64,000 nt of DNA from Obrimoposthia wandeli (Eukaryota). The notes below the pieces were generated by a model. That model was given only the letters and a program-made list of their open reading frames with translations. It searched no databases and was not told where the DNA came from. Below, piece after piece: positions 7,916 through 53,524 of the stretch; positions within the stretch are counted from its first letter, which is position 1, and every line of letters begins with the position of its first letter. A program made the position numbers and the translations under genes. The stretch is taken from assembly GCA_977020255.1 (NCBI GenBank), contig CDROCS010003949.1, positions 372,001-436,000 on the forward strand. Reading direction: 5' to 3'.

Positions 7916-7920
7916 ATTAA

Positions 7921-8445: not shown

Positions 8446-8454
8446 TTTTTTCTT

Positions 8455-27923: not shown

Positions 27924-28149
27924 TGTATAATCTATGTACGTCATAACATAATCCATGTAAATATCCACTGCTACTATTGTGGTGGTTTCAAATATCAAAA
28001 ACATAGAGATAACAATTTTTAACTGTATTTAATTGTACAAACTTTCTAAAATAAACGTACATGCATATTATAAAAATCAATACACAACATCAATCATAAT
28101 TTTTCATTAATATCATTTTAATATATTTTCCTAATTACATTTTTCTCCA
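27924..28149 (-). repeat. 3' LTR
   Basis: Direct repeat of 33851-34076, roughly 95% identical by eye. Confidence 0.95.
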
Positions 28150-28241
28150 TACTCACCACCTTGATTTAACTAGATCTAAACAAAAAAATCTTTCATTAAC
28201 ACCTGAAGACTTATCCAGAGAGGTGGCCTAAACTTACTACT

Positions 28242-32012: not shown

Positions 32013-32059
32013 AGGCCTCTGATGACAACCCCAGATTATATATTTATCTTAGAGGCTCT

Positions 32060-32835: not shown

Positions 32836-33094
32836 AAAACAATCTTCAGCCGTCTTTATTTTATTTAACCTTGCGACCTAATCCGTCGACATTCTCTAAA
32901 TAACTTATGTCTGCTAATGTTAAAAATATTGGTATTTATCCCCAAAAAAAACCTTTTGATCAAAGTGGGGGTTACAGATGAAAAATATAAATTCAAGGAT
33001 GCTTTTAAATTAAATTTTTGGGTTAGAAAGGGTGGTGGCCTTTTTACCACTTGGGCGCCACCATTTTACAAAAACTTATTTAATAGAAGGGTGG

Positions 33095-33931: not shown

Positions 33932-34076
33932 AGAGATAACCTTCTTTAACTGTATTTAATTGTACAAACTTTCTAAAATAAACGTACATGCATATTATAA
34001 AAATCAATACACAACATCAATCATAATTTTTTATTAATATCATTTTAATATCATTTCCTAATTACATTTTTCTCCA
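33851..34076 (-). repeat. 5' LTR
   Basis: Direct repeat of 27924-28149. Confidence 0.95.
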
Positions 34077-35679
34077 CTGGCTCTTCGGGCATGCGGTGAT
34101 CTTCTGAGCTTTGTGATATATGATGAAACCAGAGTCAGTATTTCAAAGTTCACGGACACCTGTGAAACAGGCTTGGAAAGTAAAGGCAACGAATGAGATT
34201 GAATTTAATTTTAAAATCATATGTTTTTAATTATTTTTCTTCAGAAAATTCAAATTGTACCATCAATGGAATCAAAAATCATTGTAAGCCAATGTAGCCA
34301 GGAGCTTCCACGAACTCAACTGCGATATCTAATTTGCTTTGGACTGCAACTGGTAAAATGATTTCGTATGTGAAAAGGTAATATGCATTTTTTTCATGCA
34401 TGAATCAAACCAGGTGCAATACGTGCAGAAGGTGCTTGGAGAAGCTTCTCTTATTGCACAGAAGCGAAAACATTGGGCAATGATTCACAAAGACCGGAAT
34501 TTGAAGGTGAGCAAGAAGATTCTCTTGGCAAAGGAGATAGCGATCGCGAAGCAGAGGTAACAACTCTCAGCCAGAAAATGAGGTGAGCATGGGAAGATAC
34601 CATGGCTGATACCACACATCATGCTGCATCATTAAACAGCCAAAATTTGCAGAAAACCTTGGTTGATGTAGGGTTGGATACGTTCTTGATGGAACTAGTC
34701 ACTCCTCAACCGCAACAGTACAACTACATCAGTATCCTTTTTTCAACGGCATCAGCAGCACTCATACCATCAAAATCAACAGTACCCCATACATTCAACA
34801 AATGGACTTCCTGTCTATTTATGAGGAGGTTTGTCAACGATGGTAGGTAGAAAGAGGTTAGACCATTTTCTTTATAAGGCTTCACCTGAAATCCAAAGAG
34901 TAGATGGTGCTACTATTCAGTAGCATCTGAATAATATACACCTAATATTAAAGGTGCTCGTTTGAAAGAAAATTTGATTAATGTGTCAGTAGATTCAAAT
35001 ATTTAGTATCTTTTAAAATCTGAGGTGATCAAATTATGACAGGCTAAATTTCAATTTGGCACAACGGTAGAGTTTTAAAACATCAAAATGGGATGAAAAA
35101 AAAATCTAATTATAGAGAGTTAAGTAGTGAATTCACAATGTGAGCTTCGTTCACTGACATCATTTGTCTTTCAGGGAGCTCATACATTCCTTCACCAACA
35201 TCTCTTCGACTCTCACGTTACATTGTTAATTTACAAAACAGTGATAGCCTTTGCGTATTTGAGATCTAATTACTGATCATAGAGAGCGTGCAAGTAAATA
35301 CTTATTTTTGAAATGATTAACAGTATCATGGAATGAATAAAATTCTGTTAAATTAACTGAAATATCTAAATTTGAACACATGAATAATTTGAAGAGAAAT
35401 TTATTTAAATATTATACAGATGCCAAAGAAAATTTAACAGAGTAAGAATTTTTTAAAAATCCTTTCGTAGATTTACATTCGTGTTTTATAAGAGCTAAAA
35501 TGAAGGAACTCTGATCAAATTAATTTTTCTTGAACACTAAACTTAATTTCACTATGCTGCAATTCCGTATTTAAATGACTTTTAAATCTCGAGATAATAG
35601 AGCCATACCCGTTAAGACAAAGTGTAAGTAGTATCATAGATGTCTACATGGATTAAGATCTTAGATCTCATTCAGCAAA

Positions 35680-37195
35680 CACTTTATATTATTTACACTG
35701 AATCCTGATGACAATACGTTGTTTAGTATGCCCAAAGATAAATATATAAAATTCATGGCTTGAGCAAAAATACATATCCGTTGAATTCAGAGTTTTGAAT
35801 CAGTTTTGGCTTTGCACGACCAGTATGAGAATATTCATCTTCTGGCTTTGGCAGAACTATTATTCTTATGCAAAAATACAACTCACTATCATAAATTTTC
35901 CGGTACAGATTGTATTTAAAATTTCGAGAGTATACGTCTTCAAGACTATAATGAGGCTCGTACATTTTGAAAGAGTAATTGTCGATAGCTTCTATATTAT
36001 ATGCTTTATTATATGAAGTTAGGCATTTATCTTTTAGTTGATGTGTTTCAGTTCTTTAGTGTAAAATCTTTAGCAAAGGATGGGCTAGATCCATTGCATT
36101 TCTTTAGTTTACCTAGTCGTTCATGCGCAATTGCAAAAAAACTCTTCTGATTAATGTTGAGTTACTGCAATATCACGTGATGTATCAAATGTATGACTTT
36201 GATATTTGGTGGAATGAATTTTGTCAACAAACATAATGTTGTCAAAAATCAATCCATGGTGGTTTTGTACATCAACATTAATAATTTTTATCGGTGGTCA
36301 CTTACTCAACATATACAACATTTCAACTTAAAGTGAGTGTATGATAGGAAAGAGTTGAATAAGTTGATGACAGATTTAGCTACTGTTGATACAGTTTCAT
36401 CAAATGTCGGTTATTTGGTTGAGGTTGATTTAACAATCCTTCGTAATGTACACGACAAGTTAGATAATTTTCAAGTTGCACCTGTTCATCAATGTCCACC
36501 TAATTCAAAGGTTATGAAATTATTGCTAACTCATTATGAAAAGTTAAATTATGTAGTACATTGGCGGTTTTTTCCATTATATTTAAAGCTGGGAGTGAAA
36601 GTCACTCGAATTCATCGGGCTATAAGCTTCAGTCAAAACTTTGCGTTTAATGACTATATTGAAAAGAATTCGAGAAAACGAAATTTGACTACTAACAAAT
36701 TCGATTGATATTTTTACAAGTTAAAAAGTAATAATCTCTTTGGTAAAACTGTAGAGGACTTGCAGAAACGTATTTGATTACGGTTTTGCAATGATACGCG
36801 TAAGTTAATAACATATTCTAACAAGTACAACTTCAAGCTTAGTTTTACAATTGCAGATGACTTGATAGCAGTGCTATTAGGAAAGCAGAGTATTTGACTC
36901 GATCGACCGAGTTATATAGGTCAAACGGTTTTAGACATTTCGAAACTCTGAATCTATGAGCTCCAATATAGAGAAATATCAACACGAATTCAATTGTGGG
37001 ATCAAAATTGCAGCTGGGGACACTGACTCTTTCTTTTTAAAATGTAGGAATGTTAGTTTACAAAGCTAATTATTAACTGCAATGTTTAAGGATAACTTAT
37101 TTGATATCCATAAATATCCCTTAAATCATGAGTCGTAATGACAAGCGCTTTTTGGTATAAAAGAACGCTACCCTGCTTATAGACACTTCTGAATT
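35680..37195 (+). pseudogene. polB: Protein-primed PolB remnant (element B)
   Basis: DGLDPLHFFSLP, VGYLVEVDL, KLLLTH, NNLFGKTVE, DRPSYIGQ and AAGDTDS in broken frames. Confidence 0.9.
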
Positions 37196-37469
37196 TAAAC
37201 GGTTTCCTTTATTTGATTTATTTTTTAGTTGATTTAAAATTTAGATCCCAATGGCACCTTTAGTCTAACTATAGGTTTCGATACATTTTTGGTTTGGCCT
37301 CATTTCTCATAATTTCTGACAGATCTACGTATTATGGGATATTTTATTGTTGAATAAATGTATATTACAAAACGTCTTATGCCTTTAATATTATTCATAT
37401 TGTGTAGGGTTTAAAAAAATCAAAAAATATATGTATTTTAAAATTTTTATTATAATAACACATTATTCG

Positions 37470-37745
37470 TTTTGAAACTATAACTATCAAATCCATAAAT
37501 GTCCACAGTTTCTCGTTGATTGAATCCTGGAATTTTATCATGTTATAAAATACTCTTCTCCGTTCTTTTTGAACAGTCGAAACAAGCTTGTGCGGATAAT
37601 TGCAAGTGGATCAAATACATGTATTAACATTACACTCTTTAACATTAATAGCTATCCAGTGTTCTCCTGATAAATTTGAAGTACGAGTATTGATAATGTA
37701 GCCTCCAGGTTTGAAAAAAAGAATCATATCAATTAGATAAACTCC
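37470..37745 (-). pseudogene. Adenain-like protease remnant (element B)
   Basis: Reverse complement matches 49200-49450 (GEHW region, RNCGHL). Confidence 0.8.
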
Positions 37746-38279
37746 ATTAAAACAAATGTTAAGAATAAACATTGGTTTTTAAACTCATTGAATGAAATAC
37801 CATTGTTTATATTTTTTATTTAGTTGACCCAAATTTTGAATAATCGATTGTGTATAAGCCAGGGCATAAACCTTACCTTCAAAATTTGTTTTATAGGTTT
37901 CGCAATAATCACGGTGTATTGAAAGTATCACTGAATCCACATTTATATGATAAAATTTTGTAACATCTATCGCATAATTTCCTAGAAACTTTGCAATTTT
38001 TTAAATGATTTTTTTAAAGTTGGCTAATCTTACATAACCAAATATTTTATTCTTATAAAAAACTTGCGTACCCATACCCAATGAGTATGTTATAACTTAA
38101 TTTCTCTAATAGGATAATAATCTTTTTTTCCATTTCTATATTATGTGACATTAAAACAGATTGCTGGGTTTTAACTCTAGTGGACATCAAGTTTTGCATC
38201 CAAAATATCAAGTCTATGTTTTAATTATTTAGTTATTTTATTCAATTTATTATTTTTTAAACTAATATGAACATCAACA

Positions 38280-38799
38280 TCAAATTTTAAATATTTAGGT
38301 TGCTCAAATAAATTTACTCTCATGTACCCACGCATTTCGTAATATTTAGAACCTGCAATCCAATTTTAGCAAGCTATAGCCGTTTTTATCGAAACAAATT
38401 GTTACCAAATTAGTATTTTGGGTATCAGTACTATAATTCAATAGACTTTCAATCAAAGCTTCATAGAAGAATTCCCACCTTCAATTTTAACATTATTAAG
38501 AGTAACAACGGCATTATTAAATAAAGAATAAAATAAGTAATTAAGATATGTCACATCTACATTATCTGATAAATTAGTACCATCTCGATTTGTTACTTTT
38601 GATTGAACATAAAGCAAAGTATCATTCAAATCTAAATAATCAATTTTGAAACCATTAATATTAAATTCTAAATCGGTTCAGGTTGTTCCCGAAACTGAGT
38701 TAACAAGAAATATATTTTTCAAGTTAAGCATTATATACCACAATTTGTTTGTGGCAGTGGTTTATCAAAAATACCTTATTTAGTTTTAGCGCAACTCAT
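38280..38799 (-). pseudogene. Major capsid protein, N-terminal half (element B)
   Basis: ATGAGTTGCGCTAAAACT start at 38799 matches 47845; 3' half deleted. Confidence 0.85.
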
Positions 38800-39179
38800 T
38801 TTACAAATATTGTTCCTTCAACTTTCATTTAAACGTTTGTTTATTGCAAAATTTTGCTTCTGTTTACGTTTAAATCTTTTTTCTTTTTGACTTTTACTTG
38901 ATTTATCTTTTTTTTAATTAAATTAGCAACGTCTGATAGAACATTATCAAGTTCATTAAGTGCATACTTCTTAAAAGTTGGTATTAATTTATTATCCTTA
39001 GATGAAAGGTAGTCCTTTCCTAATTTTGATATAAATCGCCCGAGTCTCTTCAAAAGAGGAACGGCAAATCTACCTATTGTTCTAAACCAACGGGATCCAT
39101 ATTGCTTACCAACAAAATATGGCTATTCATCACCTTGTTGGCTATTACTATATGCTTTAATTCTTGTCGAATTTGTCAT
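38796..39179 (-). pseudogene. Virion core/cement-type protein remnant (element B)
   Basis: KRLGRFISKLGKDYLSSKDNKLIPTFKK matches 47471-47848. Confidence 0.85.
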
Positions 39180-40219
39180 TTCGTTTTCTTAAATGTTTTG
39201 TTAAACTTGTCTTGTCTCCATATGTAAAATCCCTTAATTCTTAGGAATCATCTCTACATTTTGCTTCAATATAGTTCATAGATAATAAGGCAAACTTGAA
39301 GATACATTGGTTGATCTATAAATTCTATACGAATACCGACAACTTCCCCAATTTTAGTTTGACCTTCAGATATCCAAATTGTTCTCAAAATTGGTATTCG
39401 CAGTCTTCCTACAAGCGTTGGTTCTATTAAACTAGTATAAATATATAACTGTTTAATAGCATTTAAAGGTTTTGCCTGATTTTTAGCTTTAATGGTATTA
39501 CTTTATGTGTTTCAAAGGTATTTCCTGTTAACCCAAGGTTTTTAGCGAGTTTATTTTCAAAGGAAACCCGTTTTATACTGCTCTTTACTGTAAACGTCAA
39601 TTTACAATTTTTTAATGTTACACATTTATCCAAATATTCACTAAATTTCTTTATTATAAATTTACATAAATTCACTTCACTATCTATTTTATAATCTTTT
39701 GAAAACCTTTTCTGTTCTAGTACATTTTAAAATCTAGTATTAGTTAGCAACCGTTTGGCTACTCTACCATGAACATTTCTAACCGATTTACATAAAACAA
39801 TATCTTGTTTAAAATTACCTATCGGATTTTCGTTATCGAAACCGAATTGAAGAGCTTCTTTTTTATATTCAAATGTCAATTGATTAAGTTCTAATAGACT
39901 TTTATATACTATTTTTTAAAATTTCAAATAATGCTTTCACTTCTTTATCTATACAATCGAAATATAATTTTCAGTTATTGTAACACCCAATCACAACATT
40001 ATATGTTTCATCATTATTATTTTCTTTTGAAAATGAAATATGAAAGTTTTGCTGATAGTAATTGGATAATAATAAAAGTTAATTCTAATAAAGCCTCTTC
40101 CCATTCTCTTTGAAGATTTATAGAATTTTCTCAATCAATAATAAAGCTACTAGCATCATTATTCTGCTGAGTCTTTGCACATATGTTAGTAGGTAAAACT
40201 ATATATACAAAGATTTCAT
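39170..40219 (-). pseudogene. Minor capsid (penton-like) remnant (element B)
   Basis: ORF 39463-39675 and flanks match 46443-47493. Confidence 0.8.
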
Positions 40220-40860
40220 ATTATATACGATGTTGATATCCAAGTAGGATCTCAATAACTATGCCATTTAACAAAGTATTGTTTATGTTTACTAGTACCC
40301 GTAGATTTTAATATTTTTTGAATACGGAAAACGCTATGTTTATTTGATATTACTTGTAGTTCTTGCTTATAAAATTTGCCATGAACGATATTATTGTCAG
40401 CATCTTTAATAGTATACATTATTGGATTACTCTTTTAGATCAATTTTACTTATACGACATATTTCATTGTTTTTTTTAATTGGAGTAGAGCTAATTTAAA
40501 AAACTCTAACATATTAATTTTTTTCTATTTTGCTTTACTAATAATTTTTATCTTATTTCTGTTTATCCATATATTCATAAAACATCTACCGATCTCATTC
40601 CCTTGAAACTCATATGATCAGAGTGGTTATATGCATGTATTATTTTGGCAAAACTTTGATTCACTTTTTATCTCCTTCTTTTATGAAATACTTTTAGTCG
40701 TTTTCTTAAAGTATGATTAAATCTATCTAATAATTCTGTTCTGTATTGCGAAGAAACCGAGAATTGGATTAAATTACTTTGTTTAAATAATGATTTAACT
40801 TGTTGAGTATACAGTTTTTTTCTTAAGTCAGTTTTCACATTTTGCTTAATGTCATATTTT
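40216..40860 (-). pseudogene. Integrase-chromodomain remnant (element B)
   Basis: Reverse complement matches 45800-46446. Confidence 0.8.
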
Positions 40861-40952
40861 AAAATTTCTGTTAATTACATGTTAAAATATATTTGTATTC
40901 ATTATTAATAGAAGAGTATAGAAGCATCTCCATTTGTTCAAAGCTTTAAAAT

Positions 40953-41048
40953 CAGACATGCTTCTTTGTATTTTCACCATTTAATAAAAAATCATTAAAT
41001 ATGAAAACAATCATTTTAAAATGGTGAAAATACAAAGAAGCATGTCTG
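40953..41048. repeat. Perfect 30-bp inverted repeat with a 36-nt spacer
   Basis: CAGACATGCTTCTTTGTATTTTCACCATTT (40953-40982) and its exact reverse complement (41019-41048). Confidence 0.9.
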
Positions 41049-41454
41049 CTGTTAAATATTTTTTATATTCGAAGCTATATACGAATTTATTTACTTCGAA
41101 CTACAGAGTTGATTAATTTATTAACTTCTATTTTTAGCTGTTTCTTTTTTTCTCGTTCTCGTGGATTTTACTTTTACTTTGCGTTTACGTTTTACTATCA
41201 AATTTTTAAAAGGTATTGCAAGTTTATTTGTTATAATGGTTCTCTGTTTGTTTATAAACAGTTACTCCCTTTTAATTAAGTATATATATGTTGGGAATGA
41301 GAAAATATATTTGTTTTTTTGGTAATTTAAAATATAGAATTTTTGTATTAATTATTTTTGGTGAAAAAATATTAATTTTTAGTTTCAATTATTTCCTTAA
41401 TTAAAATTAAAAATCTTAATGCACTTTGTAATTTTTGTTATCTTTTTGTTGTTT

Positions 41455-41675
41455 CAGTCCCCGACCGGCTTAACCGGTTTCGCCTTGTCGGGTTCTTCAG
41501 CGGGACGGCAGATTTATCTCTGGCTTCGCGGTGGGCAAAATGCCCGCGAAGTCAGAGATAAAAAAGAAAAATAGATTAGAAGAACACTTACCTGCATAAA
41601 GTCGTCCAGGTTGCACAGAGCTACCCCACTTCCGCGATCTGCCTTGGCGCGGGAAGCAGAGCTCCGGACCTCCTT
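41455..41675 (-). mobile_element. GC-rich structured element (Penelope-like pseudo-LTR or retrozyme-like), split by element C and continuing at ~51747-51960
   Basis: Abrupt GC-rich island with a hammerhead-like motif, a ~24-bp hairpin (41513-41562) and a minus-strand GTAAGT donor; similar composition continues on the other side of the CTCCTT TSD. Confidence 0.45.
41457..41506 (-). ncRNA. Type I hammerhead ribozyme-like motif (probably decayed)
   Basis: Minus strand GTCCCG-CTGAAGA-ACCCGACAAGGC-GAAA-CCGG TTAAG CCGG-TC-GGGGAC: intact core, 5-bp stem III, GUC cleavage triplet, 5-bp stem I; mismatches at the 10.1/11.1 and 1.1/2.1 pairs. Confidence 0.6.
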
Positions 41676-41767
41676 AGTAGGTGGATGTGTCCGGTCTAAT
41701 CCACACCCACCCCTACTGTCCTTTAAAACCGTGTAGGTGTGTGGAGTGAAATTTCGTGTATGTGTGT
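41676..41767 (+). repeat. Left TIR of element C
   Basis: Inverse of 51645-51740. Confidence 0.95.
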
Positions 41768-42069
41768 CTCCATTCCACTCAAAGGGGGGAAGGAAGGGGT
41801 ACCCCCCCCACCATATTTGTTAAACTTTTACCATGAATCTCAAAAGTGGTTAGAGAAGACCACGAGAATCCATATTGACCCCGACGGCTTTTCGCAGACG
41901 AGATTTCAAATATTACTACTATTTTTAAGAAAGATTTTAGATTAATAAATTACTACATGTTAAATATCTATGTCAGTTTTAGAATTTAGAGGAGAAAAAT
42001 CGGTCAGATCTATATAATTTAGAGAAGCAAAAACAAAATACGAGACAAAATTATTTTTCAAAATATTTA

Positions 42070-42475
42070 TTAAACATAAAACAACATATTGGCTTCACTC
42101 AAAGTCCAGAGAGGCTGCATTTTCCCGTCATCAGCAAAATATCCATTCAGACGTATTGAGATATTCCATAGTTCTTCATCTAGAATTGGAGCAATCAAAT
42201 ATCCTAGATCATCTTTAAAATCCAGACTGGGATCAGTTTCAAGCTCGAAACAATTTCCTTCATATACATAATCAGGAATGTAAAATCCCAAAATATTTTT
42301 CAGTTGATCAAAATCAGTTGTTGTTAAAATTTCGATGAGATATTTTTTCTCCACTTTTGATATTTTCACAGGATTCATAACTAGTAAAAATTTGATGCCT
42401 CTTTAATATAATACATAGTTTTCTTTTTGAAATTCTTTCTGGATAATAAAAATTTGCTACACATCTCTTATCCAT
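42070..42475 (-). pseudogene. Unknown Polinton accessory gene, one frameshift near 42380
   Basis: MDKRCVANFYYPERISKRK... (ATG 42475, TATAAACA box 37 nt upstream) continues into the 102-codon ORF 42070-42378. Confidence 0.55.
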
Positions 42476-42707
42476 TCTAAAATAAGGAAACTGATTAAAA
42501 ACAATGTTTATAAAAAAGACACATAAGATACAAATAAGATACAAATAAAACTGATTATTAAATGAAAGAAACATAGTAAAACCGATTACAATTTATTACA
42601 CACAAAAGTTAAAACATAGAAATATGAGCACGTTCAATTTTCCACATTGGCAACTTTGTTCCCATTTCATCTTTCTTGTAACCATAAAGTCGAATTGTTA
42701 GAGTCCA

Positions 42708-43085
42708 TTACTTCTTTTTCGGAAACGCATCAATATCAACATATCTTCCATAGTCATCTAGAAATGCTTCATCGGCTCCTCGGATATAAAATTCGTTCTT
42801 ATTGAAAGTAAAATTCGGAACTGCCTTTTCTATTTTCTGTTTAAGATATTGAAAATCAGGTTTTTGAATACCTGATAGATAGTAGCTGAACTTTCTTCTT
42901 TCAATTGTCACAGGATTTACTAAAGCAATCAGCTGAGCCTTCTTCAAGAATCTGACTTTGTATTTGAAATATTGTTTCACTTCTTCATACATATCCTTAT
43001 CCGATTCTTCAAACATTTCTTCGTCATCGCTTAATACCCGTTGGCTATCATCCATTGTTGATAATTGTCTTTGATATGAATGCAT
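42708..43085 (-). CDS. Unknown Polinton accessory protein (125 aa, acidic N-terminus)
   Basis: Open ORF; TATAAAAG 38 nt upstream on the minus strand (43123-43116). Confidence 0.7.
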   Translation of the reverse strand: MHSYQRQLSTMDDSQRVLSDDEEMFEESDKDMYEEVKQYFKYKVRFLKKAQLIALVNPVTIERRKFSYYLSGIQKPDFQYLKQKIEKAVPNFTFNKNEFYIRGADEAFLDDYGRYVDIDAFPKKK

Positions 43086-43334
43086 TTACTGTGATTTGTC
43101 CTCCAATGGCGCATTCTTTTATACTAATTTCTAACAAAGACATGAATCTCATTGGTTAATATAACTAAAGCATTGAATTTGATTGGACTAAATCTATATT
43201 AAAAATCAAAATTGATTGGAAGAAATATATCATCCAATTATAATAGGTTTGCAAGATAATTACAAGAAACGTGCAATAAAAAAGCAGGTTCAGACATATA
43301 TAAAGAAGATTTTACAGAATACAATTTCAGTCTA
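43086..43334. promoter_or_regulatory. Bidirectional Pol II-type promoter
   Basis: Outward-facing TATA boxes (43123-43116 minus; 43299-43305 plus), Inr-like TCAGTC at 43327-43332, and five CCAAT/ATTGG boxes (43103, 43151, 43182, 43215, 43234). Confidence 0.6.
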
Positions 43335-43822
43335 ATGAAACTCGTAAATATAAATTATAAAGGTAGAACAGAAGATGATGTTTCGTACTTACCATTCAAT
43401 GAATGGAAGCCGAGACAATATGTAGAAAAGTTTGACAATTTCACAGTTGTTATTTTTCCTACAGGTTAGTTTTTTATTTTATTTTTATATTGAATTCTTT
43501 AGGAAATTGTCGTGTTATGGGATGCAAAATACCAATGCTTGGGTTCAATTTACCATTTGGAATTCAAATCACTGCAATACAATCAATCACGATTTCGGCT
43601 AATCTCGGGAAACAGATAAATCTTTTTAAAACTGCAGAGAAAATGAAAGAAGAATGCATGTTTGAACCAGAAATTTTTCCTGCTCTCAGTTATTTGAAGT
43701 TTAAACCGCTATGTGTAAATATATTTTCCAGTGGTAAAGTTATGATATTGGGATTGAAAAATTTTGATTATCCAGACATAGTTGATTTGATTTTAGAAAA
43801 TATATCTTATTACATCTTGTAA
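43335..43822 (+). CDS. TATA-binding-protein-like protein (~149 aa, 2 exons: 43335-43464, 43503-43822)
   Basis: A 38-nt GT-AG phase-1 intron joins TVVIFPT-G-NCRVMG; second half FEPEIFPALSY...VNIFSSGKVMILG matches TBP repeat 2 (YEPELFPGLIY...LLIFVSGKVVLTG). Confidence 0.85.
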
Positions 43823-43865
43823 TCTTTTTTCTATAAACAAACCCCGTTTAAACTTATTGTTTCAA

Positions 43866-44138
43866 ATGAATAATACTATAAATAGAGACAATGAAGTGGA
43901 TCGGCTTGCCGATGAAATATTTTCTGGAAAAATTAGGGGTAAAGAAATTTTATCAGAATTAAAAAATAATGATATAACAAGAGATAACATTGAAATATTG
44001 GTTAGATCACACGTTATTCGAGAATTTAGAAATCGTACACAAATAAATAAAATTATAGCCAAATATTCATTAATTAATTTTTGTATTTCATCTACAATAG
44101 CTCTAACATTGTACATTTCAATAAGGAAACTTCTATGA
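43866..44138 (+). CDS. Unknown small protein with a hydrophobic C-terminal segment (90 aa)
   Basis: Open ORF; YSLINFCISSTIALTLYISI could be a membrane anchor; TATAAACA 34 nt upstream. Confidence 0.6.
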   Translation: MNNTINRDNEVDRLADEIFSGKIRGKEILSELKNNDITRDNIEILVRSHVIREFRNRTQINKIIAKYSLINFCISSTIALTLYISIRKLL

Positions 44139-44175
44139 TAATATAAACAATATTAAAAATGAAAGAGTATATGCA

Positions 44176-44823
44176 ATGGAGCTAAATAATAATGCTGTAT
44201 TTCAAATAGTTGGCCCAAGTGGAAGTGGAAAGACACATTTCGTCTGTAAATTGTTGCAAAATGAATCTCTTTTCAAATCTAGTTTCAAAAATATTTATTG
44301 GCATCATAGTGGAGGAGTGGAAAGCGGGTTAACCAAAACAAAAGTTTGCAAGTTGAAGGATATAAAATTTATTGAAGGATTTGATGCAAATTGGTGTGAA
44401 AGATTGAAAAAAGAAGATGTAATAATAATTGATGATTTGTATGAGGAGGCTAACAAGGAATCGGACGTTAATAATTTATTTACAAAGATTGCAAGACATT
44501 GTGAAGTTACAGTTATATTTATCACTCAAAATCTGTTTCACCAAGGAGGTCACCATAGAACAAGAAATCTTAATGTACATTACTTAGTTTTATTTAAAAA
44601 TCCTAGAGATCAAACAGTTGTTGATTTTGTGGCCAGACAGGCATTTCCTCAAAATAAGAACTTTCTAAATGATTCATTCCACGATGCTGCTAAACAAGCA
44701 CATGGGTATATATTTATTGACTTTACACAAGCTTGCCCAGATGATTTACGTGTTTTAACAGACATATTTAATTCTAAGGGAGTAACTGTTTATAAACAAA
44801 TAGAGAACAATTATAAAAAATAA
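44176..44823 (+). CDS. A32/FtsK-like DNA packaging ATPase (element C)
   Basis: Walker A GPSGSGKT, Walker B VIIIDD, ITQNLF, HYLVLFKNPRD. Confidence 0.95.
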   Translation: MELNNNAVFQIVGPSGSGKTHFVCKLLQNESLFKSSFKNIYWHHSGGVESGLTKTKVCKLKDIKFIEGFDANWCERLKKEDVIIIDDLYEEANKESDVNNLFTKIARHCEVTVIFITQNLFHQGGHHRTRNLNVHYLVLFKNPRDQTVVDFVARQAFPQNKNFLNDSFHDAAKQAHGYIFIDFTQACPDDLRVLTDIFNSKGVTVYKQIENNYKK

Positions 44824-44830
44824 ATTCGCA

Positions 44831-44971
44831 ATGCCTTTTACAAAGTTGATAGTAAAACGTAAAGTAAAATCTAAGAAATCAAAAAAAAGAATCATTAAGA
44901 AAAAAGAAGTGAAAAAATTAATCAAATCTGTAGTTAAAAATAAAAAAAAACTTAAATGGCTTCGAATATAA
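44831..44971 (+). CDS. 46-aa Lys-rich basic peptide (putative DNA-condensing core protein)
   Basis: MPFTKLIVKRKVKSKKSKKRIIKKKEVKKLIKSVVKNKKKLKWLRI; not in the supplied ORF track; homologous to the N-terminus of ORF 54169-54597. Confidence 0.65.
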   Translation: MPFTKLIVKRKVKSKKSKKRIIKKKEVKKLIKSVVKNKKKLKWLRI

Positions 44972-45001
44972 ACAATATTTAAATTGAACCTTTTTATTAA
45001 A

Positions 45002-45331
45002 ATGAAGAAAATACAAAGAAGCATACCCTATTTTAAAGCTTTAGTCAAAGCCTCTTCTAATAAGAGAATGATTATTCTTAAAGCATTCCCATCCTTTGTT
45101 GTAGATGATTTATTGGAAGTTTTATATAATATAGTTTTGGGTCGAGTAAAAGTTGGAAATCGGAAAAATATATTAAAGAAATATAGAAAAACTCTTATAG
45201 ATATTGCTAATGTAAAAAGTAAAAAAAGGAAACGAAATATTATTCTTAAACAGAATGGTGGTTTCATAGGGGCTGTTATTCCAGTTGTTGCTTCAATTAT
45301 CAGTAGTATTATAGCTGCGACACGTTCATAA
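45002..45331 (+). CDS. Basic virion protein with a C-terminal QxGG-amphipathic helix
   Basis: Ends KQNGGFIGAVIPVVASIISSIIAATRS; homolog at 54169-54597. Confidence 0.8.
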   Translation: MKKIQRSIPYFKALVKASSNKRMIILKAFPSFVVDDLLEVLYNIVLGRVKVGNRKNILKKYRKTLIDIANVKSKKRKRNIILKQNGGFIGAVIPVVASIISSIIAATRS

Positions 45332-45359
45332 ACAATTATTTCTAAAATCAGCTAAAGAT

Positions 45360-45578
45360 ATGGGTGCTAGCCCTTCTTTACCTAAACTTAAATTTTCTTT
45401 CTATTCAAATTGTTGTAATGGAGAAGATATGGTTCAATCCAAAAGATCCAATTGGCTACACAGGAGTTTCAAAATTAGCAAAAAGAACAAAACAAAATTA
45501 CAAGAAAACGCAGAAATGGCTGAGCGATTAGTTAGCCTACAGTATGAACAAGCCGATGAGAAGAAGGTTTCCAACTAG
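45360..45578 (+). CDS. Overprinted ORF with an N-myristoylation-like start, overlapping the integrase 5' end (72 aa)
   Basis: MGASPS...SNCC; conserved counterpart at 54640-54873; CATAAACA box 33 nt upstream. Confidence 0.6.
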   Translation: MGASPSLPKLKFSFYSNCCNGEDMVQSKRSNWLHRSFKISKKNKTKLQENAEMAERLVSLQYEQADEKKVSN

Positions 45579-46446
45579 AGCTTACAAAACCAGCGGTCCT
45601 AATAATTTATGGCAAATGGATTTGATGGTGATGATCCCATATTCTTCCATTAATAAGGGATATCGATATATTTTAACATGTATTGATGTATTTAGCAGGT
45701 TTGCTCGTGCAATTCCAGTTAAAGCAAAGTCTTCAATAGCTATGCTTGAAGCCATTAAAGAAATATTAAAAGAGGACATTCCACAAAATGTGCAAACTGA
45801 TTTAGGAAAAGAATTTTATAATAAGCAAGTTCAATCATTATTTAAACAAAATAATATAAATCATTACTCTGTGTTTTCACAATAAAAAGCAGCAGTAGTA
45901 GAAAGATTTAATCGTACTCTAAGAGATCGAATAAAAAAGTATTTCACAAAAGAAGGAAATAAAAAATGGATCCAAGTTTTACCTAAAATAATACATGCAT
46001 ATAATCACTCTGAACATAGAGGTCTCAAGGGAATGAGACCTGTTGATGTTACTAATAAAAACTATATGGACATTTGAATGAACAGGAATAAAAAAGATAA
46101 AATTAAAAAAGCTAAATATAAGAAAAACGAATATGTTCGAATTTCGAAAATTAGCTCTTCTCCATTTATTAAAAACTTTGATCAGAATTGGAGCGATGAA
46201 ATATTTTGTATAAGTAAAATTGATCAAAAGAGTAATCCAATAATGTATACTATTAAAGATGCTGACAATAATATCGTTCACGGTAAATTTTACGAGCAAG
46301 AACTACAAGTAATATCAAATAAACCTAGCGTTTTCCGTATTCAAAAAATATTAAAATCTAAAGGTACAGGTAAACATAAACAATACTTTGTTAAATGGCA
46401 TGGTTATTCAGATCCAACTTGGATATCAGCATCTAATATAATATGA
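45418..46446 (+). pseudogene. Retroviral-like (rve) integrase with C-terminal chromodomain, premature stops (element C)
   Basis: MEKIWFNP, WQMDL, LTCIDVFSR, QTDLGKEFYN, VERFNRTL, YFVKWHGY; stops at 45529, 45883 and 46075. Confidence 0.93.
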
Positions 46447-47493
46447 ATTCTATGTATATGGTTTTACCAAGTAACGGATGTCCGAAGACTCAACCAGATA
46501 ATGACGCTAGTAGCTTTATTATCGATTGGGAAAATTCTATAAATCTCCAAGGATAATGGGAAGCGGCTTTAACAGACTTTCCTTTTTATTATTCTCCAAT
46601 TACTATCAAAAAAAACTCACATATTTCGTTTACAAAAGAAGTTGATCATGAAAAAACACCTGAAGTTGTGAAGTTGTAAAGGACAATTCTATTACAATTG
46701 TATAGATAAAGAAGTGAAAGTAATATTTGAAAATAACAAAGTCAGATTTAAAAATCGATTAAAATTTCTTCAAGTTATTAAAATTAATTTTGAATCTAAA
46801 AAAGAAGCTCTTCAATTCAGTTTTGATAGTGAACAAACAGTAGCTCGTAATAAACGGGATATTATCTCATCTAATTCGGTTAGAAATGTTCCTGGTAGAG
46901 TAGCAAAAGTGTTGTTACTTGAAACGAGACCAAAGACTGTAGTGGAACTGAAAACGTTTTCAAAAGATTATAAAATAGATAGTGAAGTGAATTTCTGTAA
47001 ATTAATACAGAAGGAATGTAGTGAATATTTGGATAAATGTGAAACATTAAATGGTAAATTAATGTTTACAGTAAAGAGCAATATAAAACGAGTTTCATTT
47101 GATGATAAACTCGCTAAAAACCTTGGTTTAAACAGAAATACCTTTGAAACCCATACAATAAAAACCATAAAAGCTAAAAATAAGGCAAAGCTTTTAAATG
47201 CTGTTAATCATTTATATATTTATACTAATTTAATAGAACCAACGCTTGTAGGAGGACAGCGAGTTCCACTTTTGAGAACAATATGGATATCTAAAAATGA
47301 AACTAGAGATGGGGACACTGTCGGTATGTGTATAGATCAACCAATGTATCTTCCAGTTTCTCTCTTTTCTATAAACAATATTGAAGTAAATATTAGAGAT
47401 GATTCCGGACAACTAATAGATTTCACGTACGGGGCCAAGACAAGTTTAACAATACATTTAAGAAAACAAAATGGCGAATCCAGCAATAATTGA
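46443..47493 (+). pseudogene. Minor capsid / penton-like protein, frameshifted (element C)
   Basis: MYMVLPSN start, WEAAL, YIYTNLIEP..VGG...PLLRTI, INNIEVNIRD...G, LTIHLRK. Confidence 0.88.
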
Positions 47494-47848
47494 AGCTTAT
47501 AGTCAAAGCCAACAAGGTGGAGAATTACCATATTTTGTTGGTAAACAATACGAATCTGGCTGGCTTAGAACATTAGGTAGATTTGCCTTTCCTCTTTTAA
47601 AGAGACTCTGGCGATTTATATCAAAATTAGGAAAGGATTACCTTTCATCTAATGACAATAAACTAATACCAACTTTTAAGAAGCATGCGCTTGATGAACT
47701 TGATAATGTTTTACCTGAAGTTGCTAATTTGATTAGAAAACGTAAATCAAATAAAAGCCAAGGAGGTAGTGGATTTAAAAGTAAAAAGAAGCTAAAAATT
47801 AATATAAACAAACGTAAGAAAGTTGAAGGAACAATATTTGCAAAATGA
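47471..47848 (+). CDS. Virion core/cement-type protein between penton and MCP (125 aa)
   Basis: QQGGELPYFVGKQY.SGW...LGRFAFPLLK, basic C-terminus; conserved in B and D. Confidence 0.85.
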   Translation: MANPAIIEAYSQSQQGGELPYFVGKQYESGWLRTLGRFAFPLLKRLWRFISKLGKDYLSSNDNKLIPTFKKHALDELDNVLPEVANLIRKRKSNKSQGGSGFKSKKKLKININKRKKVEGTIFAK

Positions 47849-49074
47849 GTTGCGCCAAAACTGAATTATGTATTTTTGATAAACCGCTTCCACAAGTAGT
47901 TGTAGATAATGCTTCCTTTGAAGAAATATTCCTTGTTAACTCAGTTTCAGGAACCACTTTAACCGATTTAGAATTTAATATTAATGGTTCCAATAGCGAG
48001 TATTTAGATTTGAATGATACTTTGCTTTATGTTCAAATAAAAGTATTAAATCGGGATGGTACAAATTTAGATGAAAATGCCGATGTAACACCTATAAATT
48101 ATATATTTAATTCTTTATTTAATGATGCCATTGTTACTCTTAATAATGTCAAAATTGAAGGTGGAAATTCTTCCTATGCTCATAAAGCTTTGATTGAAAG
48201 TCTTTTGAATTATAGTACTGATACTCAAAATACTAATTTGGCAACCATTGGTTATGATAAAACTGATGCAATTCGCAAAGAATGGATTGCAGGTTCTAAA
48301 GCTTACGAAATGTGTGGGTCTTTGAGATTGAATTTATTTGAACAACCGAAATATTTAATTCCCGGTGTTAATGTACATCTTCGTTTGAAACGTAATAAAT
48401 GGAATTTTTCTTTGAAAAGCACGGACATTCTAAAACCTAGACTTGATATTTTGGATGCAAAATTGTATGTTTGAAGAGTTAAAACCGAGCAATCAGTTTT
48501 AATGGCACATAATATAGGAATGGAAAAAAACAATGCTTGTTATCCTATTAGAGAAACTAAACTTATATCTTATTCTTTAGGTACGGGTACACAAGCTTTT
48601 AATAAGGATCAAATTTTTGGTGATGTATGATTACCGAAATTCATTTTAATTTCTTTTCAAAAAACTGCAAAGTTTCTAGGAAATTATACGACAGATGCAA
48701 CTCAATTTGACAATCTTAATGTTGGTTCAGTGACACTTTCAAGAAATACTGATTATCGTGAAACATATAAAACAGAATTCGAAGGTAACGCTTATGCTTT
48801 GGCTTATACCCAATCTATTATTCGAAATTTGGGTCAACTAGATAAAAATATAAACAATGGTATTTCTTTCACTGACTTTAAAAACAGCTGCCCGTTCTTC
48901 ACATTTGTTTTGGCACCAGACTTTGATATAAACCAATGTCAACTACCAAAGAATGGAAATTTACGACTAGAAATTAAGTTCAATGCAGCTTTAACAAATC
49001 CTACTACGGTGCTTATTTACGGAGTATTTGATTCGGAAATACAAATCAATAAAAACAGAACTGTCATATTATAG
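47845..49074 (+). pseudogene. Double jelly-roll major capsid protein, two in-frame TGA stops (element C)
   Basis: One frame throughout: ELCIFDKP, YLDLNDTLL, QPKYLIPGVNVHLRL, FTFVLAPDFD, GNLRLEIKF; stops at 48472 and 48628. Confidence 0.92.
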
Positions 49075-49075
49075 A

Positions 49076-49456
49076 ATGGAGTAAGACATATTTTAAATTT
49101 ATATTTATTAATTTTTATTTAGTTCAAAACAAGTAAAAGAATCAGCAGAGAAGGTCCTGGGTGATAAATTCAATGGAGTTTATCCTATTGATATGATTCC
49201 ATTTTTTCAATCTGGAGGTTACATTATCAATACTCATACTTCGAATTTACCAGGAGAACATTGGATAGCTATTTATGTTAGAGAGTGGACAATACATGTA
49301 TTTGATCCACTTGCAATGTATTATCCACACAAACTTGTTTCAACTATTCAAAAAGGACGAAGAAGAGTATTTTACAACAAGATACAATATCAGGATCCTG
49401 CGACGAGAAACTGTGGACATTTATGTATTTTATGGTTATCGTTGCAAAACAATTAG
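49076..49456 (+). CDS. Adenain-like maturation protease, 2 exons (49076-49080, 49123-49456)
   Basis: ATG GA|GTAAGA...TTTAG|T TCA gives MDSKQVKES...; catalytic H (GEHW), D (FDP), Q and C (NCGHLC). Confidence 0.9.
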
Positions 49457-49729
49457 TGTTATAAAAATAAAAATTTTAAATGTTTTATTTTGAATTATTT
49501 TTTAAATTTCTAAAAATATAAGGGTAAAATAATAAAAGACATAAGACAATTTTTTTTAATACATTTATTAATCACAACATCACAATGAGATATGTCAGCA
49601 AAGATAAGGCATAATAAATAAGGTCCATCCTAAAAAAGTATTGAAATAACAAATAAGTTAGAGTCTAAGTGCCATAAGGATCTAAAATTTTAAAAAACTA
49701 AACTAAAAAAATCAAAAAATGAAAACCGT

Positions 49730-50530
49730 TTAAATTCTGAAGTGTCCATAAGCCAGGCTAGCGTTCTTTTCTACCCAAAAGCGCTTGTCATCATTACTAC
49801 TCAAAGCGATTTTGGTTGATTTATGGGAATACAGTTGATGGGCTCTTGAAATAAATCTAGTTTGCTCAACGCTTTCAATACACCCAGTATCATAAACTTT
49901 CTGGTAGGTGTCATGTGTAAGATTGTTTCTTCCCACACCCTTTGCTCTCATTGAACATGTATTATTAGATGCATGTAAACTGTAGCATTTAGGGCGTAGG
50001 AAAATACAATCATCATACGAAACCTGTCCCTCGCTTTCATCCTTAAATTTCCCGATAATGTTCTTTAAACTCATAGAGTGTAGAGGATGGTTAGCGGGAT
50101 ATTTATGGGTATCTAGTAAGTTGTCCCTAAACATTGCTGGTAATAATTGATTATTTAAACTAACATTCCTACATTCTAAAAAGAAAGAGTCAGTGTCCCC
50201 AGCTGCGATTTTAATCTCAAAATTAAATTCTTGTCGGTATTTCTCCAATTCTATGTATTGAAGCTCATACATTCTGAGTTTAGAAATGTCTAAAACCGTT
50301 TGACCTATATAACTCGGTCGATCGAGACAAATACTCTGTTTTCCTAATAACACTGCTACCAAGTCATCTGCAATTGTAAAACTACGCTTGAAGTTGTACT
50401 TGCTAGTATATGTTATTAGTTTACGCTCATCATTTTAAAACCGTAGACAAATACGTTTCTGCAAGTCCTCTACAGTTTTTCCAAAGAGACTATTACTTTT
50501 TAACTTGTAAAAATCTCGATCGAATTAGAG
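49730..50530 (-). pseudogene. polB: 3' fragment of protein-primed PolB (element C)
   Basis: DRPSYIGQ, AAGDTDS, GKFKDE, FLRPKCY, MRAKGV, DDKR; the 5' part is absent. Confidence 0.92.
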
Positions 50531-50531
50531 C

Positions 50532-50930
50532 GTCCAATGAGAGCGGGTTAATCAAATAATTTATTTGAAAATCAGTAGGCTTTTCTCAATTTTTTAACTA
50601 TGTTTGAATGCTGGAATGTCATTGGATAAAACATATTTTATTCGAAAATATATCACTAAACTTTTGTTGTCCAATGAGAGCGGGTTATTCAAATAATTTA
50701 TTTGAAAATCAGTAGGCTTTTCTCAATTTTTTAACTATGTTTGAATGCTGGAATGTCATTGGATAAAACATATTTTATTCGAAAATATATCACTAAACTT
50801 TTGTCGTCCAATGAGGGCTGGGTATTCAAATAATTTATTTGAAAATCAGTAGGCTTTTCTCAATTTTTTAACTATGTTTGAATGCTGGAATGTCATTGGA
50901 TAAAACATATTTTATTCGAAAATATAACTA
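50532..50930. repeat. 3 x 137-bp tandem repeat
   Basis: Units start at 50532, 50669 and 50806; each contains TCCAATGA and its inverse TCATTGGA. Confidence 0.95.
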
Positions 50931-51156
50931 TTTTCTTAAGATTTTCTTAAGATTTTCTTGTATAAGTTTAACGTCCAATGAAAACGTATTATTCAAAGAA
51001 TTTATGTTATTTTCTTAAATTTTGTTAAGATTTGGATTTAAAATAGTAATATTTTCTTAAATTTTGTTAATATTTGGATTTAAAATAGTAATATTTTTTT
51101 GACTGTACATGTTTGGATGGTATAAAAAATTCATGAACTCATTTCAGTTCAAGTTA

Positions 51157-51269
51157 AGGTCATTACCTTATGAGGTCATCATCGTGAGGTCAAGGTCATT
51201 TAAGGTCATCATGAGGTCAAGGGTACAAAGTTGTCTAGGTCATCATGAGTTCAAGATCACTTAAGGTCA
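51157..51269 (+). promoter_or_regulatory. Cluster of eight co-oriented AGGTCA hexamers
   Basis: At 51157, 51173, 51187, 51193, 51203, 51214, 51237 and 51264. Confidence 0.5.
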
Positions 51270-51644
51270 TGATGACTAATTTGATGACTCATCAAATAAA
51301 AATGCAAATTATTTCGAATTTATGTAGTTGATTATTTAAAAAAATTTTGTGACCCTATATATGTATCTTTCTTATAAAGAAATTTTTTTTTATGACCTTG
51401 TATATATGTATGGATTTAAATTTTTATAAGGAAAATTTTTTCGCGCCCGCGAGCCTGTATTTATTACTCGTTGATCCACCGCGGGCCCTTAGAGCACGCT
51501 TTGGCCATTTTTTTGGCCTCTCAGGACCTTAATCAAAATTTTGGGAGCATTATGAGATTTTAAAATTTACAGGGTGTTAAATGGAGTTTGTTTTTTTTTT
51601 GTTTTTTTTTTGAGTGTTTGAGATGGGGGGGTAGAAAATTTTCT

Positions 51645-51740
51645 ACACACCTACACGAAATTTCACTCCACACACATGCACGGTTTTAAAGGACAGTAGG
51701 GGGGAGGGGGTGTGGATTAGACCGGACACATCCACCTACT
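51645..51740 (-). repeat. Right TIR of element C
   Basis: Inverse of 41676-41767, followed by the TSD CTCCTT. Confidence 0.95.
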
Positions 51741-52135: not shown

Positions 52136-52668
52136 TCAATTTATCTGAAATATAACATATATTCAAACACATAAATCATCAAAACAAGCTTGTGTAAAGT
52201 CGATAAATAAGTAATCATGTGCTTGTTTAGCATACCCTCAGCCATGATGCTAATAAATATTTTGAAACTGGAATTGAAAAGCGTTATATTTTGTAACATT
52301 TCACATAAAAAATGTGTCTTTTCACTTCCACTGGCTCCAACTACTTGTTATACAGCATTATTATTCAGCTCCATTTCATATACTCTTTCATTTTAATAAT
52401 CTTTAGCTCAAGTAGGGGGATGTGGCACTTCTGGCACAAAAAGTATGAGAGAAGGGGGGTGCCAGCATAATTGAAGGTGTGTATGATGTAATAACATGTG
52501 TGTATTACGCCATAAGTATGTTTAAAAACTCTAGACTATGAATATTTTATTGAAACAATTTTGTATAATATATCTCCTCATACTTGTATTTTTCTTATTC
52601 ACTCATGTGATTTGCATTTATATTGATTTATTTTATATAAACAAAGCTTATTTAGTTCTAATATAAAG

Positions 52669-53431
52669 ATGAATGAAGTGATTGTTGATGATGATGTTCC
52701 AATTAAATCTACTCCAGATAATGTGTCTCATACCGCAATCAAAGTAATTCCTTATTATATAATATAATCTAAATCTTTAAAAGATGGAAAAAGTAAATGA
52801 AGAATCAGAATCAGAAGCAGTGACACCGCCAAGAACAGAAGATGCTATGGTTATTGAAGAGCATCGATTGAAATTTTTAAATGGATTAGATTTAATAGAG
52901 CATATAATAACCGATGCTTCTAGTATGGAAATGAACCATATGAGACGTCTTTTTAATAGATTGTTTAATTTTAGATATTGTCAACTTTATAAAGAAAACT
53001 TAGTCAGGACAAAAATGAGTGAAATTCTAACAGATAAACTTTATATTGGTAATTATCGTGATGGGTTTGATGAAACTAGTCTACTCAAATCCGGATTTAC
53101 TCATGTTATCAATACATCTCATTCAGATCATATTCAATATAAAGAACTAAAGTTTACATCTGTTTTCATCAAAAAGAGAGAAACAGTGATGAAGTATTAT
53201 AAACTAACTAATAGTATTATTCAGGAAAATATCGAAAACGGAGGAAACGTTTTAGTTTATGGACATTATGGGATTGATCTCTCTGTGGGTATTGTAATCG
53301 CATTTTTATCTCTTTCTATGCCTGTTAGTATTGTTTCTCACCTTGTTAAATCTAGGCGTAGTATTGCTACACAAACGGATATTATGTGTTCTCAAATCCG
53401 TCTTTTTAATCGATTCTGTGAATCTATGTAA
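52669..53431 (+). CDS. Dual-specificity-phosphatase-fold protein, predicted inactive; probable 2 exons (52669-52743, 52784-53431)
   Basis: LYIGNY, GFTHVIN, GGNVLVYGHYGIDLSVGIVIAFL (canonical VLVHCxxGxSRS), VKSRRS; 40-nt phase-0 GT-AG intron candidate; TATAAACA 33 nt before ATG 52669. Confidence 0.8.
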
Positions 53432-53524
53432 ATGTTTGTTTATGAACTGTCTATGTTTTATAATAAATTACTTTTGATATATTTATGTCTTATAAACATT
53501 AACCTATTACACTGATTGTTTAAT

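Follow-up and report, generated by a model that had tools for sequence, protein, structure and literature searches.

Among the closest described counterparts of the gene analysed here, a reduced TATA-binding protein (TBP) gene in a Polinton element (mini-TBP), are the viral TBPs (vTBPs) of herpesviruses, i.e. ORF24 of KSHV, BcRF1 of EBV and UL87 of HCMV. Both are viral TBP mimics with a more polar DNA face, and the TATT(W)AA late promoters of the vTBPs (PMC12529657) have a parallel in the likewise non-canonical TATA-like late-gene word paired with mini-TBP. ORF24 is a protein of 752 amino acids with four intercalating Phe residues and no TFIIB-contacting glutamates, which binds RNA polymerase II itself and needs five viral partners (PMC12529657), whereas mini-TBP is a bare 150-amino-acid domain with three Phe residues that keeps the glutamates. 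Thus, it is not the large multidomain protein with a Pol II-binding N-terminal domain that defines a vTBP, and there is no sequence kinship beyond the fold (Foldseek E 1.4e-3 for BcRF1). Large DNA viruses also encode the TBP fold (ASFV B263R-like, phycodna-, mimi- and ascovirus proteins; BFVD; locus L031), but their TBPs mostly have 186–500 amino acids with both repeats complete, unlike mini-TBP, and that of L031 groups with eukaryotic TBP and not with the mini clade. Large DNA viruses with TBPs bring their own RNA polymerase. On the cellular side, TRF2/TLF (TBPL1) is a paralogue that has lost intercalating Phe and acts independently of the canonical TATA box (PMC10005294, PMC3142196); it belongs to the host, has its helices complete and binds TFIIA, and the mini clade stands apart from the host paralogues sampled.

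Adintoviruses, Polintons and MELD viruses share a polymerase, an rve integrase, an FtsK/A32 ATPase, adenain, hexon, penton and inverted termini (PMC8502044). A MELD-virus figure legend in that paper (Starrett 2021) bears the label ‘TBP’, which could denote either the clade described below or a full-size kind; the accessible part of its text mentions neither a mini-TBP gene and how widely it occurs nor a reduced fold or a promoter word, and there is no TBP among the text labels of its Fig. S2. The statement in the first-pass annotation that TBP lies outside the canonical Polinton gene set thus stands for the gene set, although the label was already in print. A literature search for TBP genes in Polintons, adintoviruses or Mavericks, with subscription journals and Repbase outside its scope, yielded no description, nor did one for Polinton late-gene promoters with TATA; none of the matches listed for TATAAACA dealt with Polintons (related papers cited in this context are PMC6066478 and PMC10675990). 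The anatomy of mini-TBP and its promoter link therefore are apparently undescribed in print.

The window, i.e. the whole stretch of 64,000 nucleotides analysed, contains mini-TBP within Polinton copy C, the features of which are as follows.

41670–41675, no strand: left target-site duplication, 6 bp, CTCCTT
41676–51740, no strand: Polinton copy C, 10,065 bp, with inverted termini starting AGTAGGTGGATGTG at 41676 (plus) and 51740 (minus)
42711–43085, minus: divergent neighbour gene, ending early in copy C, canonical TATAAAAG upstream
43335 (ATG) to 43820–43822 (stop), plus: mini-TBP gene, 149 codons after removal of 38 nt
43335–43464, plus: mini-TBP exon 1, strands S1, S3 and S4 of the reduced N-terminal repeat, with N5, N7, P26, Q28 and F41
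43465–43502, plus: mini-TBP intron, 38 nt, GT-AG, phase 1 in a Gly codon, in-frame stop inside
43503–43822, plus: mini-TBP exon 2, S5 with R47/M49, then the complete C-terminal repeat
43866 (start), plus: 90-amino-acid ORF
44176–44823, plus: A32-like packaging ATPase, Pfam Pox_A32 E 2.2e-6
45002–45331, plus: protein-X-like gene
45532–46446, plus: rve integrase with chromodomain, Pfam rve E 7.1e-14, Chromo E 3.1e-6; two frames in copy C
47471 (start), plus: 125-amino-acid virion-cassette gene
47845–49071, plus: major capsid gene (double jelly-roll), weak Pfam DJR-like match, E 0.04; broken in copy C
49112–49453, plus: adenain-like maturation protease, Peptidase_C5 E 0.034 (D homologue 3.4e-6)
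49733–50434, minus: C-terminal remnant of a protein-primed DNA polymerase, 53–58% identical to the polymerase frames of L038/L056
51741–51746, no strand: right target-site duplication, 6 bp, CTCCTT

By its inverted termini, target duplication and gene content this element is a Polinton, as had been proposed. Integrase, ATPase, protease and capsid genes are present, with weak Pfam matches for the capsid and the C protease, and the polymerase is partial, copy C having lost most of this gene; the family-D polymerase matches PF03175. The capsid assignment draws on synteny and on 57–61% identity to a single open frame in L038, L056 and L066, and 6-bp target duplications flank two further copies (L101/L102 and L103). 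The divergent neighbour belongs to a family of about 115 amino acids that adjoins mini-TBP in 22 loci (including L032–L050 and L069) and may bind single-stranded DNA or act as a cofactor; neighbour genes of mini-TBP gained no Pfam or PHROG names, and an Atlas search retrieved TBP clusters with the mini-TBP homologue P0011 and nothing with the neighbour family. Copy C appears to have inserted into, and so split, a decayed C-like Polinton of greater age on the minus strand (35500–41290 and 52166–52405, with ATPase pieces on either side), a third decayed C-like copy lies at about 5500–8900, and nested elements occur throughout the genome. Three 137-nt repeats lie near the right end of copy C (50499–50926), and the region 28200–34100 holds decayed BEL/Pao-like retroelement pieces (minus) between 226-nt direct repeats (at 27924 and 33851), which enclose a ubiquitin-like (32470–32877) and a spectrin-repeat frame (33098–33955).

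Copy C is one of many. All 150 scored matches of a mini-TBP search in genome G000, taken from 32,249 first-look candidates (a figure that is not a copy number), were 100% identical, so family C is abundant there. The window's copy of a second family, D, begins at the following feature, where it is cut inside the gene.

52517–52626, plus: 3′ remnant of the family-D mini-TBP gene

Four other D copies (L093, L096, L098, L108) carry mini-TBP ahead of a phosphatase gene. The first-pass annotation had cautioned that D uses the same box with no TBP-like gene visible in its part of the window; D does carry the gene, with its 3′ end in the window. Further inhabitants of these elements are a dual-specificity phosphatase gene (52784–53431, Pfam DSPc E 2.3e-9), located between mini-TBP and the ATPase gene in D and F elements; a 27-nt tandem array ahead of the D polymerase gene (59715–59998); and a DEDD-like protein with conserved Cys/His (58790–59281; also in L053, L056, L061 and others), which often adjoins mini-TBP, is absent from C, had no Pfam match and resembles the ‘MAEL’ gene of adintovirus maps, as labelled in PMC8502044 Fig. 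S2. In 20 further stretches retrieved with canonical TBP, a mini-TBP match was always present (20/20), accompanied in 19 by another element gene of the query set. The host TBP and several paralogues were also found (L111, L112, L113, L114, L115, L116); one paralogue adjoins TBP on C238 in head-to-head or tail-to-tail orientation, and two others are intronless and divergent, one of them next to Polinton fragments.

An important question is whether the proposed 38-nt intron is genuine. Eight candidate splice forms leave an open frame, which alone therefore cannot choose between them, and homologues were used instead. Intronless homologues that align to both exons cross the junction without a break (P0002, VIFPTGNCRVMG), and the junction motif is present in 110 of 120 homologues. 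Among 30 other family-C copies, selected for 100% identity across the 105 codons of exon 2, the intron varies from 35 to 56 nt (38 nt in 19), i.e. its length is not kept in frame, with GT at 28 and AG at all 30 of the splice ends. The same phase-1 Gly codon is interrupted by sequence-unrelated introns in families D, F and G and in a decayed family in L102, and the family-E gene (L095) is intronless. Such intronless homologues and unrelated introns at one codon confirm the 38-nt intron at the level of sequence comparison. Four unlabelled sequencing runs of one sample behaved as DNA, and the joints listed for them do not include this intron. A two-piece mini-TBP match in L090 (762–1198), with a gap elsewhere than the G000 intron, may represent a second intron position.

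The spliced product contains both TBP half-repeats, as the first-pass annotation had read it from the letters: besides the read-through of homologues, exon 2 matches Pfam TBP with 46.4 bits (cut-off 22.9, E 3.7e-12) and solved TBP structures by sequence (best E 3.7e-14), and the fold of P0011 extends over both; exon 1 alone had no TBP match in Pfam. The motifs EIFPA, NIFSSGK and VIFPTG are there as described, with three of the four Phe residues and a shortened N-terminal repeat. Exon 2 ends after 105 codons only in the window copy (109 in 25 and 114 in five of the 30 others), so that 149 amino acids is slightly below the usual length of the family.

Structure was predicted for the homologue P0011 rather than for the spliced protein of the window itself (AlphaFold2, 116 sequences, pLDDT 96, pTM 0.84). 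Over its full 150 residues this model aligns with the TBPs of yeast and human (Z 13.9, rmsd 2.5), true TBPs score Z 11–14 against a next unrelated fold at Z 6.6, and the top 44 Foldseek matches are all TBPs, which bears out the TBP-like fold. Relative to cellular TBP (PF00352; yeast 7o4i_O, human 5fur_A, Sulfolobus 1mp9), the modelled saddle spans the whole length of mini-TBP with Z 12.8–13.9, at 21–24% identity and with about 150 instead of 180 residues. Common to both are F190, P191, F207, the TFIIB stirrup glutamates, F116 and N69 (yeast numbering). In the model, however, the N-terminal helices H1 and H2, strand S2 and the N-terminal stirrup are missing: this repeat consists of S1, S3, S4 and S5, with no helix before residue 86 and 19 residues from S5 to S1′ against 32 in canonical TBP, whereas the C-terminal repeat is complete. 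Thus, in contrast to the two helices and five strands per repeat of canonical TBP, the N-terminal repeat is predicted to retain its DNA-facing strands and to have lost both helices and one Phe. N-terminal H2 is where TBP binds TFIIA, TAF1, Mot1 and Brf1. More generally, many partner interfaces of TBP lie on the convex-side helices (PMC3142196).

The DNA face itself is altered. With yeast numbering taken via the canonical TBP P0205 (offset 41), which reproduces the numbers in Table 1 of PMC12529657, the residues of the window copy correspond as follows (yeast = window).

N-terminal repeat: N69 = N5, V71 = N7, L114 = V39, F116 = F41, V122 = R47, T124 = M49
N-terminal repeat, register inferred: F99 = P26, A101 = Q28
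C-terminal repeat: N159 = S71, V161 = T73, E186/E188 = E98/E100, F190 = F102, P191 = P103, I194 = S106
End of C-terminal repeat: V203 = C114, L205 = N116, F207 = F118, V213 = M124, T215 = L126

Across the clade the equivalents of F116, F190 and F207 are kept in 99–100% of homologues and the E-x-E stirrup glutamates in 96% and 100% of 116, whereas canonical TBP has four Phe residues and the first of these is replaced by an invariant Pro (in the probable register). Mini-TBP thus has the TBP fold without being a canonical TBP. About eleven DNA-face positions are changed: V71N, F99P, A101Q, V122R and T124M in the N-terminal and N159S, V161T, I194R, V203C, L205N and T215L in the C-terminal repeat. 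Most of the new residues are 90–100% invariant in the clade, and the DNA-face residues 97–100% in 116 homologues. Exon 2 of the window copy encodes E98, E100, F102, P103, C114, N116 and F118 in its C-terminal repeat, and has S106 where 112 of 114 homologues and five other G000 copies have Arg. The changed positions are listed TBP DNA contacts (PMC12529657, Table 1); V122, V161 and L205 are also polar in KSHV ORF24 (PMC12529657), and the altered specificity of yeast TBPm3 at base 2 goes back to three positions, I194, V203 and L205 (PMC1636458). The DNA face thus is remodelled in both repeats, including the three TBPm3 positions. This disagrees with the suggestion that the protein diverges mainly where it faces the altered 3′ half of the box, although the missing first Phe and the Arg at V122 do sit over that half; in TBP, Phe193/Phe210 kink steps 7–8 of the TATA box (PMC3142196).

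Which DNA could such a face read? The window holds 24 copies of the word TATAAACA where 10.2 are expected, and none of 100 shuffles reached 24; the word lies 34–48 nt ahead of the ATPase, capsid and other starts in both C and D.

43297–43304, plus: canonical-type TATA box TATATAAA, 38 nt before the mini-TBP start
43832–43839, plus: TATAAACA, 34 nt before the 90-amino-acid ORF at 43866
44142–44149, plus: TATAAACA, 34 nt before the packaging ATPase
44967–44974, plus: TATAAACA, 35 nt before the protein-X-like gene
47370–47377, plus: TATAAACA, 101 nt before the 125-amino-acid virion-cassette gene
47803–47810, plus: TATAAACA, 42 nt before the major capsid gene
53491–53498, plus: TATAAACA, before the D ATPase
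52636, 54140, 54511, 54602, 56659, 57075, 58742 and 58755: further TATAAACA boxes in D

The mini-TBP gene itself is preceded by TATATAAA, likely read by host TBP; in 30 other C copies its upstream region has TATATAA in 26 and TATAAACA in none. A canonical TATA also precedes the gene in the six G000 family copies checked, but in only two of ten outside relatives. The TATA-less upstream regions (L034, L035, L038, L039, L042, L072–L083) contain TTGTTT(T/A)A 40–65 nt before the start and TCAT(A/T)AT near it, which may represent a reversed box-like word or another core element.

For a survey, 24 loci were assembled (17 distinct ones of 59 metagenome loci, four G000 stretches and L137–L139), of which 22 were tallied, the contrast loci L138 and L139 being left out, with TATAAAC[AG] scored within −130 to +45 of the gene start. 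The box precedes 58 of 79 ATPase, protein-X, integrase, penton, capsid, protease and MAEL-like genes and none of 22 TBP and polymerase genes (Fisher p 1e-10, which is optimistic since the loci are related). By gene, this amounts to 13/15 for the ATPase, 10/10 for protein X, 4/10 for integrase, 4/9 for penton, 9/9 for the small virion gene, 10/11 for capsid, 3/6 for protease and 5/9 for the MAEL-like gene, against 0/18 for TBP and 0/4 for polymerase. The predicted co-occurrence of mini-TBP and TATAAACA is thereby borne out. Like the word of the vTBPs, this non-canonical word stands before presumed late and not presumed early genes. By analogy, mini-TBP would work like a herpesvirus vTBP without being one, since size, Phe count and TFIIB glutamates differ.

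The box also has the geometry of a promoter element. In 54 kb of cassettes from 11 loci it shows 56 sense and 1 antisense occurrence, whereas the control words TATAAATA (7:7) and ATAAATA (23:29) are balanced in the same cassettes; 47 of 64 plus-strand TATAAACA sites are no more than 130 nt from the start of a long ORF, and the preferred distance to the start is about 33–45 nt. Protein constraint was considered as a cause, as the capsid-gene box lies in frame in the upstream gene, but the ATPase and protein-X boxes are mostly intergenic, so that this cannot be the general cause. At position 1 of 68 sites there are 54 T, 10 C, 3 G and 1 A before the fixed core ATAAACA, and many of the 21 ‘late’ genes without a strict box have C or G there (CATAAACA or GATAAACA).

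Beside TATAAACA, itself a Forkhead site, GTAAACA is the other common Forkhead word. A fixed core with a variable first position could point to a host factor, Forkhead or host TBP/TFIID, as the reader of the box, with mini-TBP doing another job; a FOXF1 reporter makes use of TATAAACA (PMC11536904), and there is a crystal structure of wild-type TBP on a C(−25) TATA variant (1qn3). However, the 56:1 sense bias and the 33–45 nt spacing fit a core promoter, GTAAACA occurs near the start in only 3 of 17 cases and mostly within conserved codons, and an element with a full-size TBP (L138) has no box excess, which makes this reading an unlikely one. That mini-TBP is an architectural DNA bender for replication, integration or packaging seems very improbable to us: TBP folds are found in replication initiators (RepDE, Z 6.6) and mini-TBP adjoins the ATPase or a gene family that may bind single-stranded DNA, but the window site list has no TATAAACA in the copy C termini, boxes precede gene starts, the stirrup glutamates are conserved and the best folds are true TBPs (Z 11–14).

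The gene is widespread. A profile of five mini-TBP sequences recovered 796 proteins at E<=0.001, a set that takes in canonical TBPs; nearly all of the top 120 are 144–170 amino acids long (median 150) and consist of the TBP domain only, and 48 clusters at 50% identity score E<=1e-30. Metagenome loci with mini-TBP show a Polinton core gene in 23 of 59 cases, many of those without a visible one being short, and in 15 of 21 among loci of at least 3 kb. Three layouts occur, with mini-TBP before the ATPase, after the protease and DEDD/zinc (MAEL-like) gene, or between those two (L137). In a tree of 65 rows (27 homologues, six G000 exon-2 pieces, two loci, 15 helix-keeping relatives and 15 others), the 35 mini rows fall on one side of a branch with SH-aLRT 96, in what is a quick tree with long branches and a root that is not clean; they are sister to the helix-keeping group (joint SH-aLRT 99) and apart from eukaryotic and host TBPs (99). 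A constraint grouping the G000 mini-TBPs with host TBPs, represented by single exons or one intronless paralogue, was rejected (p-AU 8e-8), and exon 2 has dN/dS of 0.07–0.20 in 5 of 15 family pairs, the other ten being saturated at synonymous sites. Mini-TBP is thus a large, Polinton-linked clade of about 150 amino acids under purifying selection between families and not derived from host TBP; the host-retrocopy origin that the first-pass annotation wished to see checked is excluded by the separate clade and the rejected constraint, and sister families also have the gene. Individual copies do look expendable, in that the window copy ends slightly early in a partly decayed element and both exon 1 and its donor are intact in only 19 of the 30 other C copies. 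That the gene is neutral cargo or a recent host TBP retrocopy is nonetheless scarcely credible given the clade, the selection and the hundreds of homologues, and is refuted for the lineage, single decayed copies being neutral after insertion.

Contrast elements bear on whether box and protein belong together. L137, found through its ATPase alone, has mini-TBP and seven TATAAACA boxes, all sense (0/200 shuffles). The distant Polinton L138, whose contig belongs to an assembly labelled as bacterial, encodes a full-size, four-Phe TBP of 185 amino acids in canonical layout (11568–12122, minus); it has no excess of TATAAACA (3 vs 2.4 expected) and a modest one of TATAAAAG (6 vs 2.3; 5/200 shuffles). 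Its partial relative L139 is not a tidy case: a single TATAAACA precedes its polymerase frame, and neither its ATPase nor its penton gene has one. L086 encodes a helix-keeping TBP of the sister group with the new DNA face (43% to P0225) beside a distant Polinton-type ATPase, with CATAAACA at −37. At least two kinds of TBP thus exist among Polinton-type elements, and the order suggested is canonical face, new face with helices, then loss of helices, each stage being represented by one element. Viral-contig scans with ATPase, capsid, an ATPase alignment and a helix-keeping TBP alignment gave no relative or only a giant-virus TBP, a pattern scan gave four loci, none with Polinton genes, and queries of G000 with distant capsid, full-size TBP and helix-keeping TBP revealed no other group. 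With only two contrast elements, and none of them TBP-less, the box may mark a lineage rather than a protein.

Overall, we consider it probable that mini-TBP is the Polinton's own late-promoter factor, predicted to bind TATAAACA before packaging, integrase and capsid genes. Mini-TBP and polymerase would be transcribed first by host machinery from box-less promoters. The remodelled, more polar face, with Arg at V122, Asn at V71 and L205, Cys at V203, Arg at I194 and Pro for the first Phe, would then prefer YATAAACR, with C at position 7; the retained stirrup glutamates would recruit host TFIIB and hence RNA polymerase II, and the loss of the N-terminal helices would remove convex-surface host contacts, leaving a free factor outside TFIID. 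The outcome would be a two-step early/late switch. Several points speak against the late-factor reading: host factors could read TATAAACA, family C has Ser at the I194 position yet the same box, canonical TATA precedes the TBP gene in few outside relatives, and no strict box precedes 21 of the 79 ‘late’ genes. The loss of one Phe and both N-terminal helices with the TFIIB glutamates kept would also suit a role as decoy or repressor, in which mini-TBP would titrate host TFIIB away or obstruct host TATA promoters, much as TRF2/TLF sequesters TFIIA; TLF lacks TATA binding and can repress through sequestration (PMC3142196). A decoy, however, needs no invariant new DNA-face residues and leaves the shared non-canonical box before late genes only unaccounted for. 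As the main role this is quite improbable, but a decoy effect could accompany late-promoter activation as a side effect. More tentatively, and with rather less than even confidence, we propose that a large, old Polinton lineage runs a herpesvirus-style late switch with one 150-residue factor, i.e. an orthogonal TBP–promoter pair whose face was remodelled to read YATAAACR before helix loss and which escapes host regulators while recruiting TFIIB.

The status of Polintons as viruses is debated; with a dedicated factor and word, this question and that of how capsid and integrase genes are timed become testable by means of one small protein and an 8-bp box. Mini-TBP, which naturally lacks the N-terminal helices and is substituted at TBPm3 positions, also tests which parts of TBP are needed for initiation and how TATA specificity can change. 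With many copies in an animal-type genome, its expression could also reach host TATAAACA sites. If the late-factor reading is true, this would be an independent origin of the herpesvirus-type viral-TBP late switch with the opposite design, TFIIB contact kept and convex surface dropped. Under the more tentative proposal of an orthogonal pair, no smaller TBP than mini-TBP would be known to work, and a timed viral programme would appear to have been retained in these ‘transposons’.
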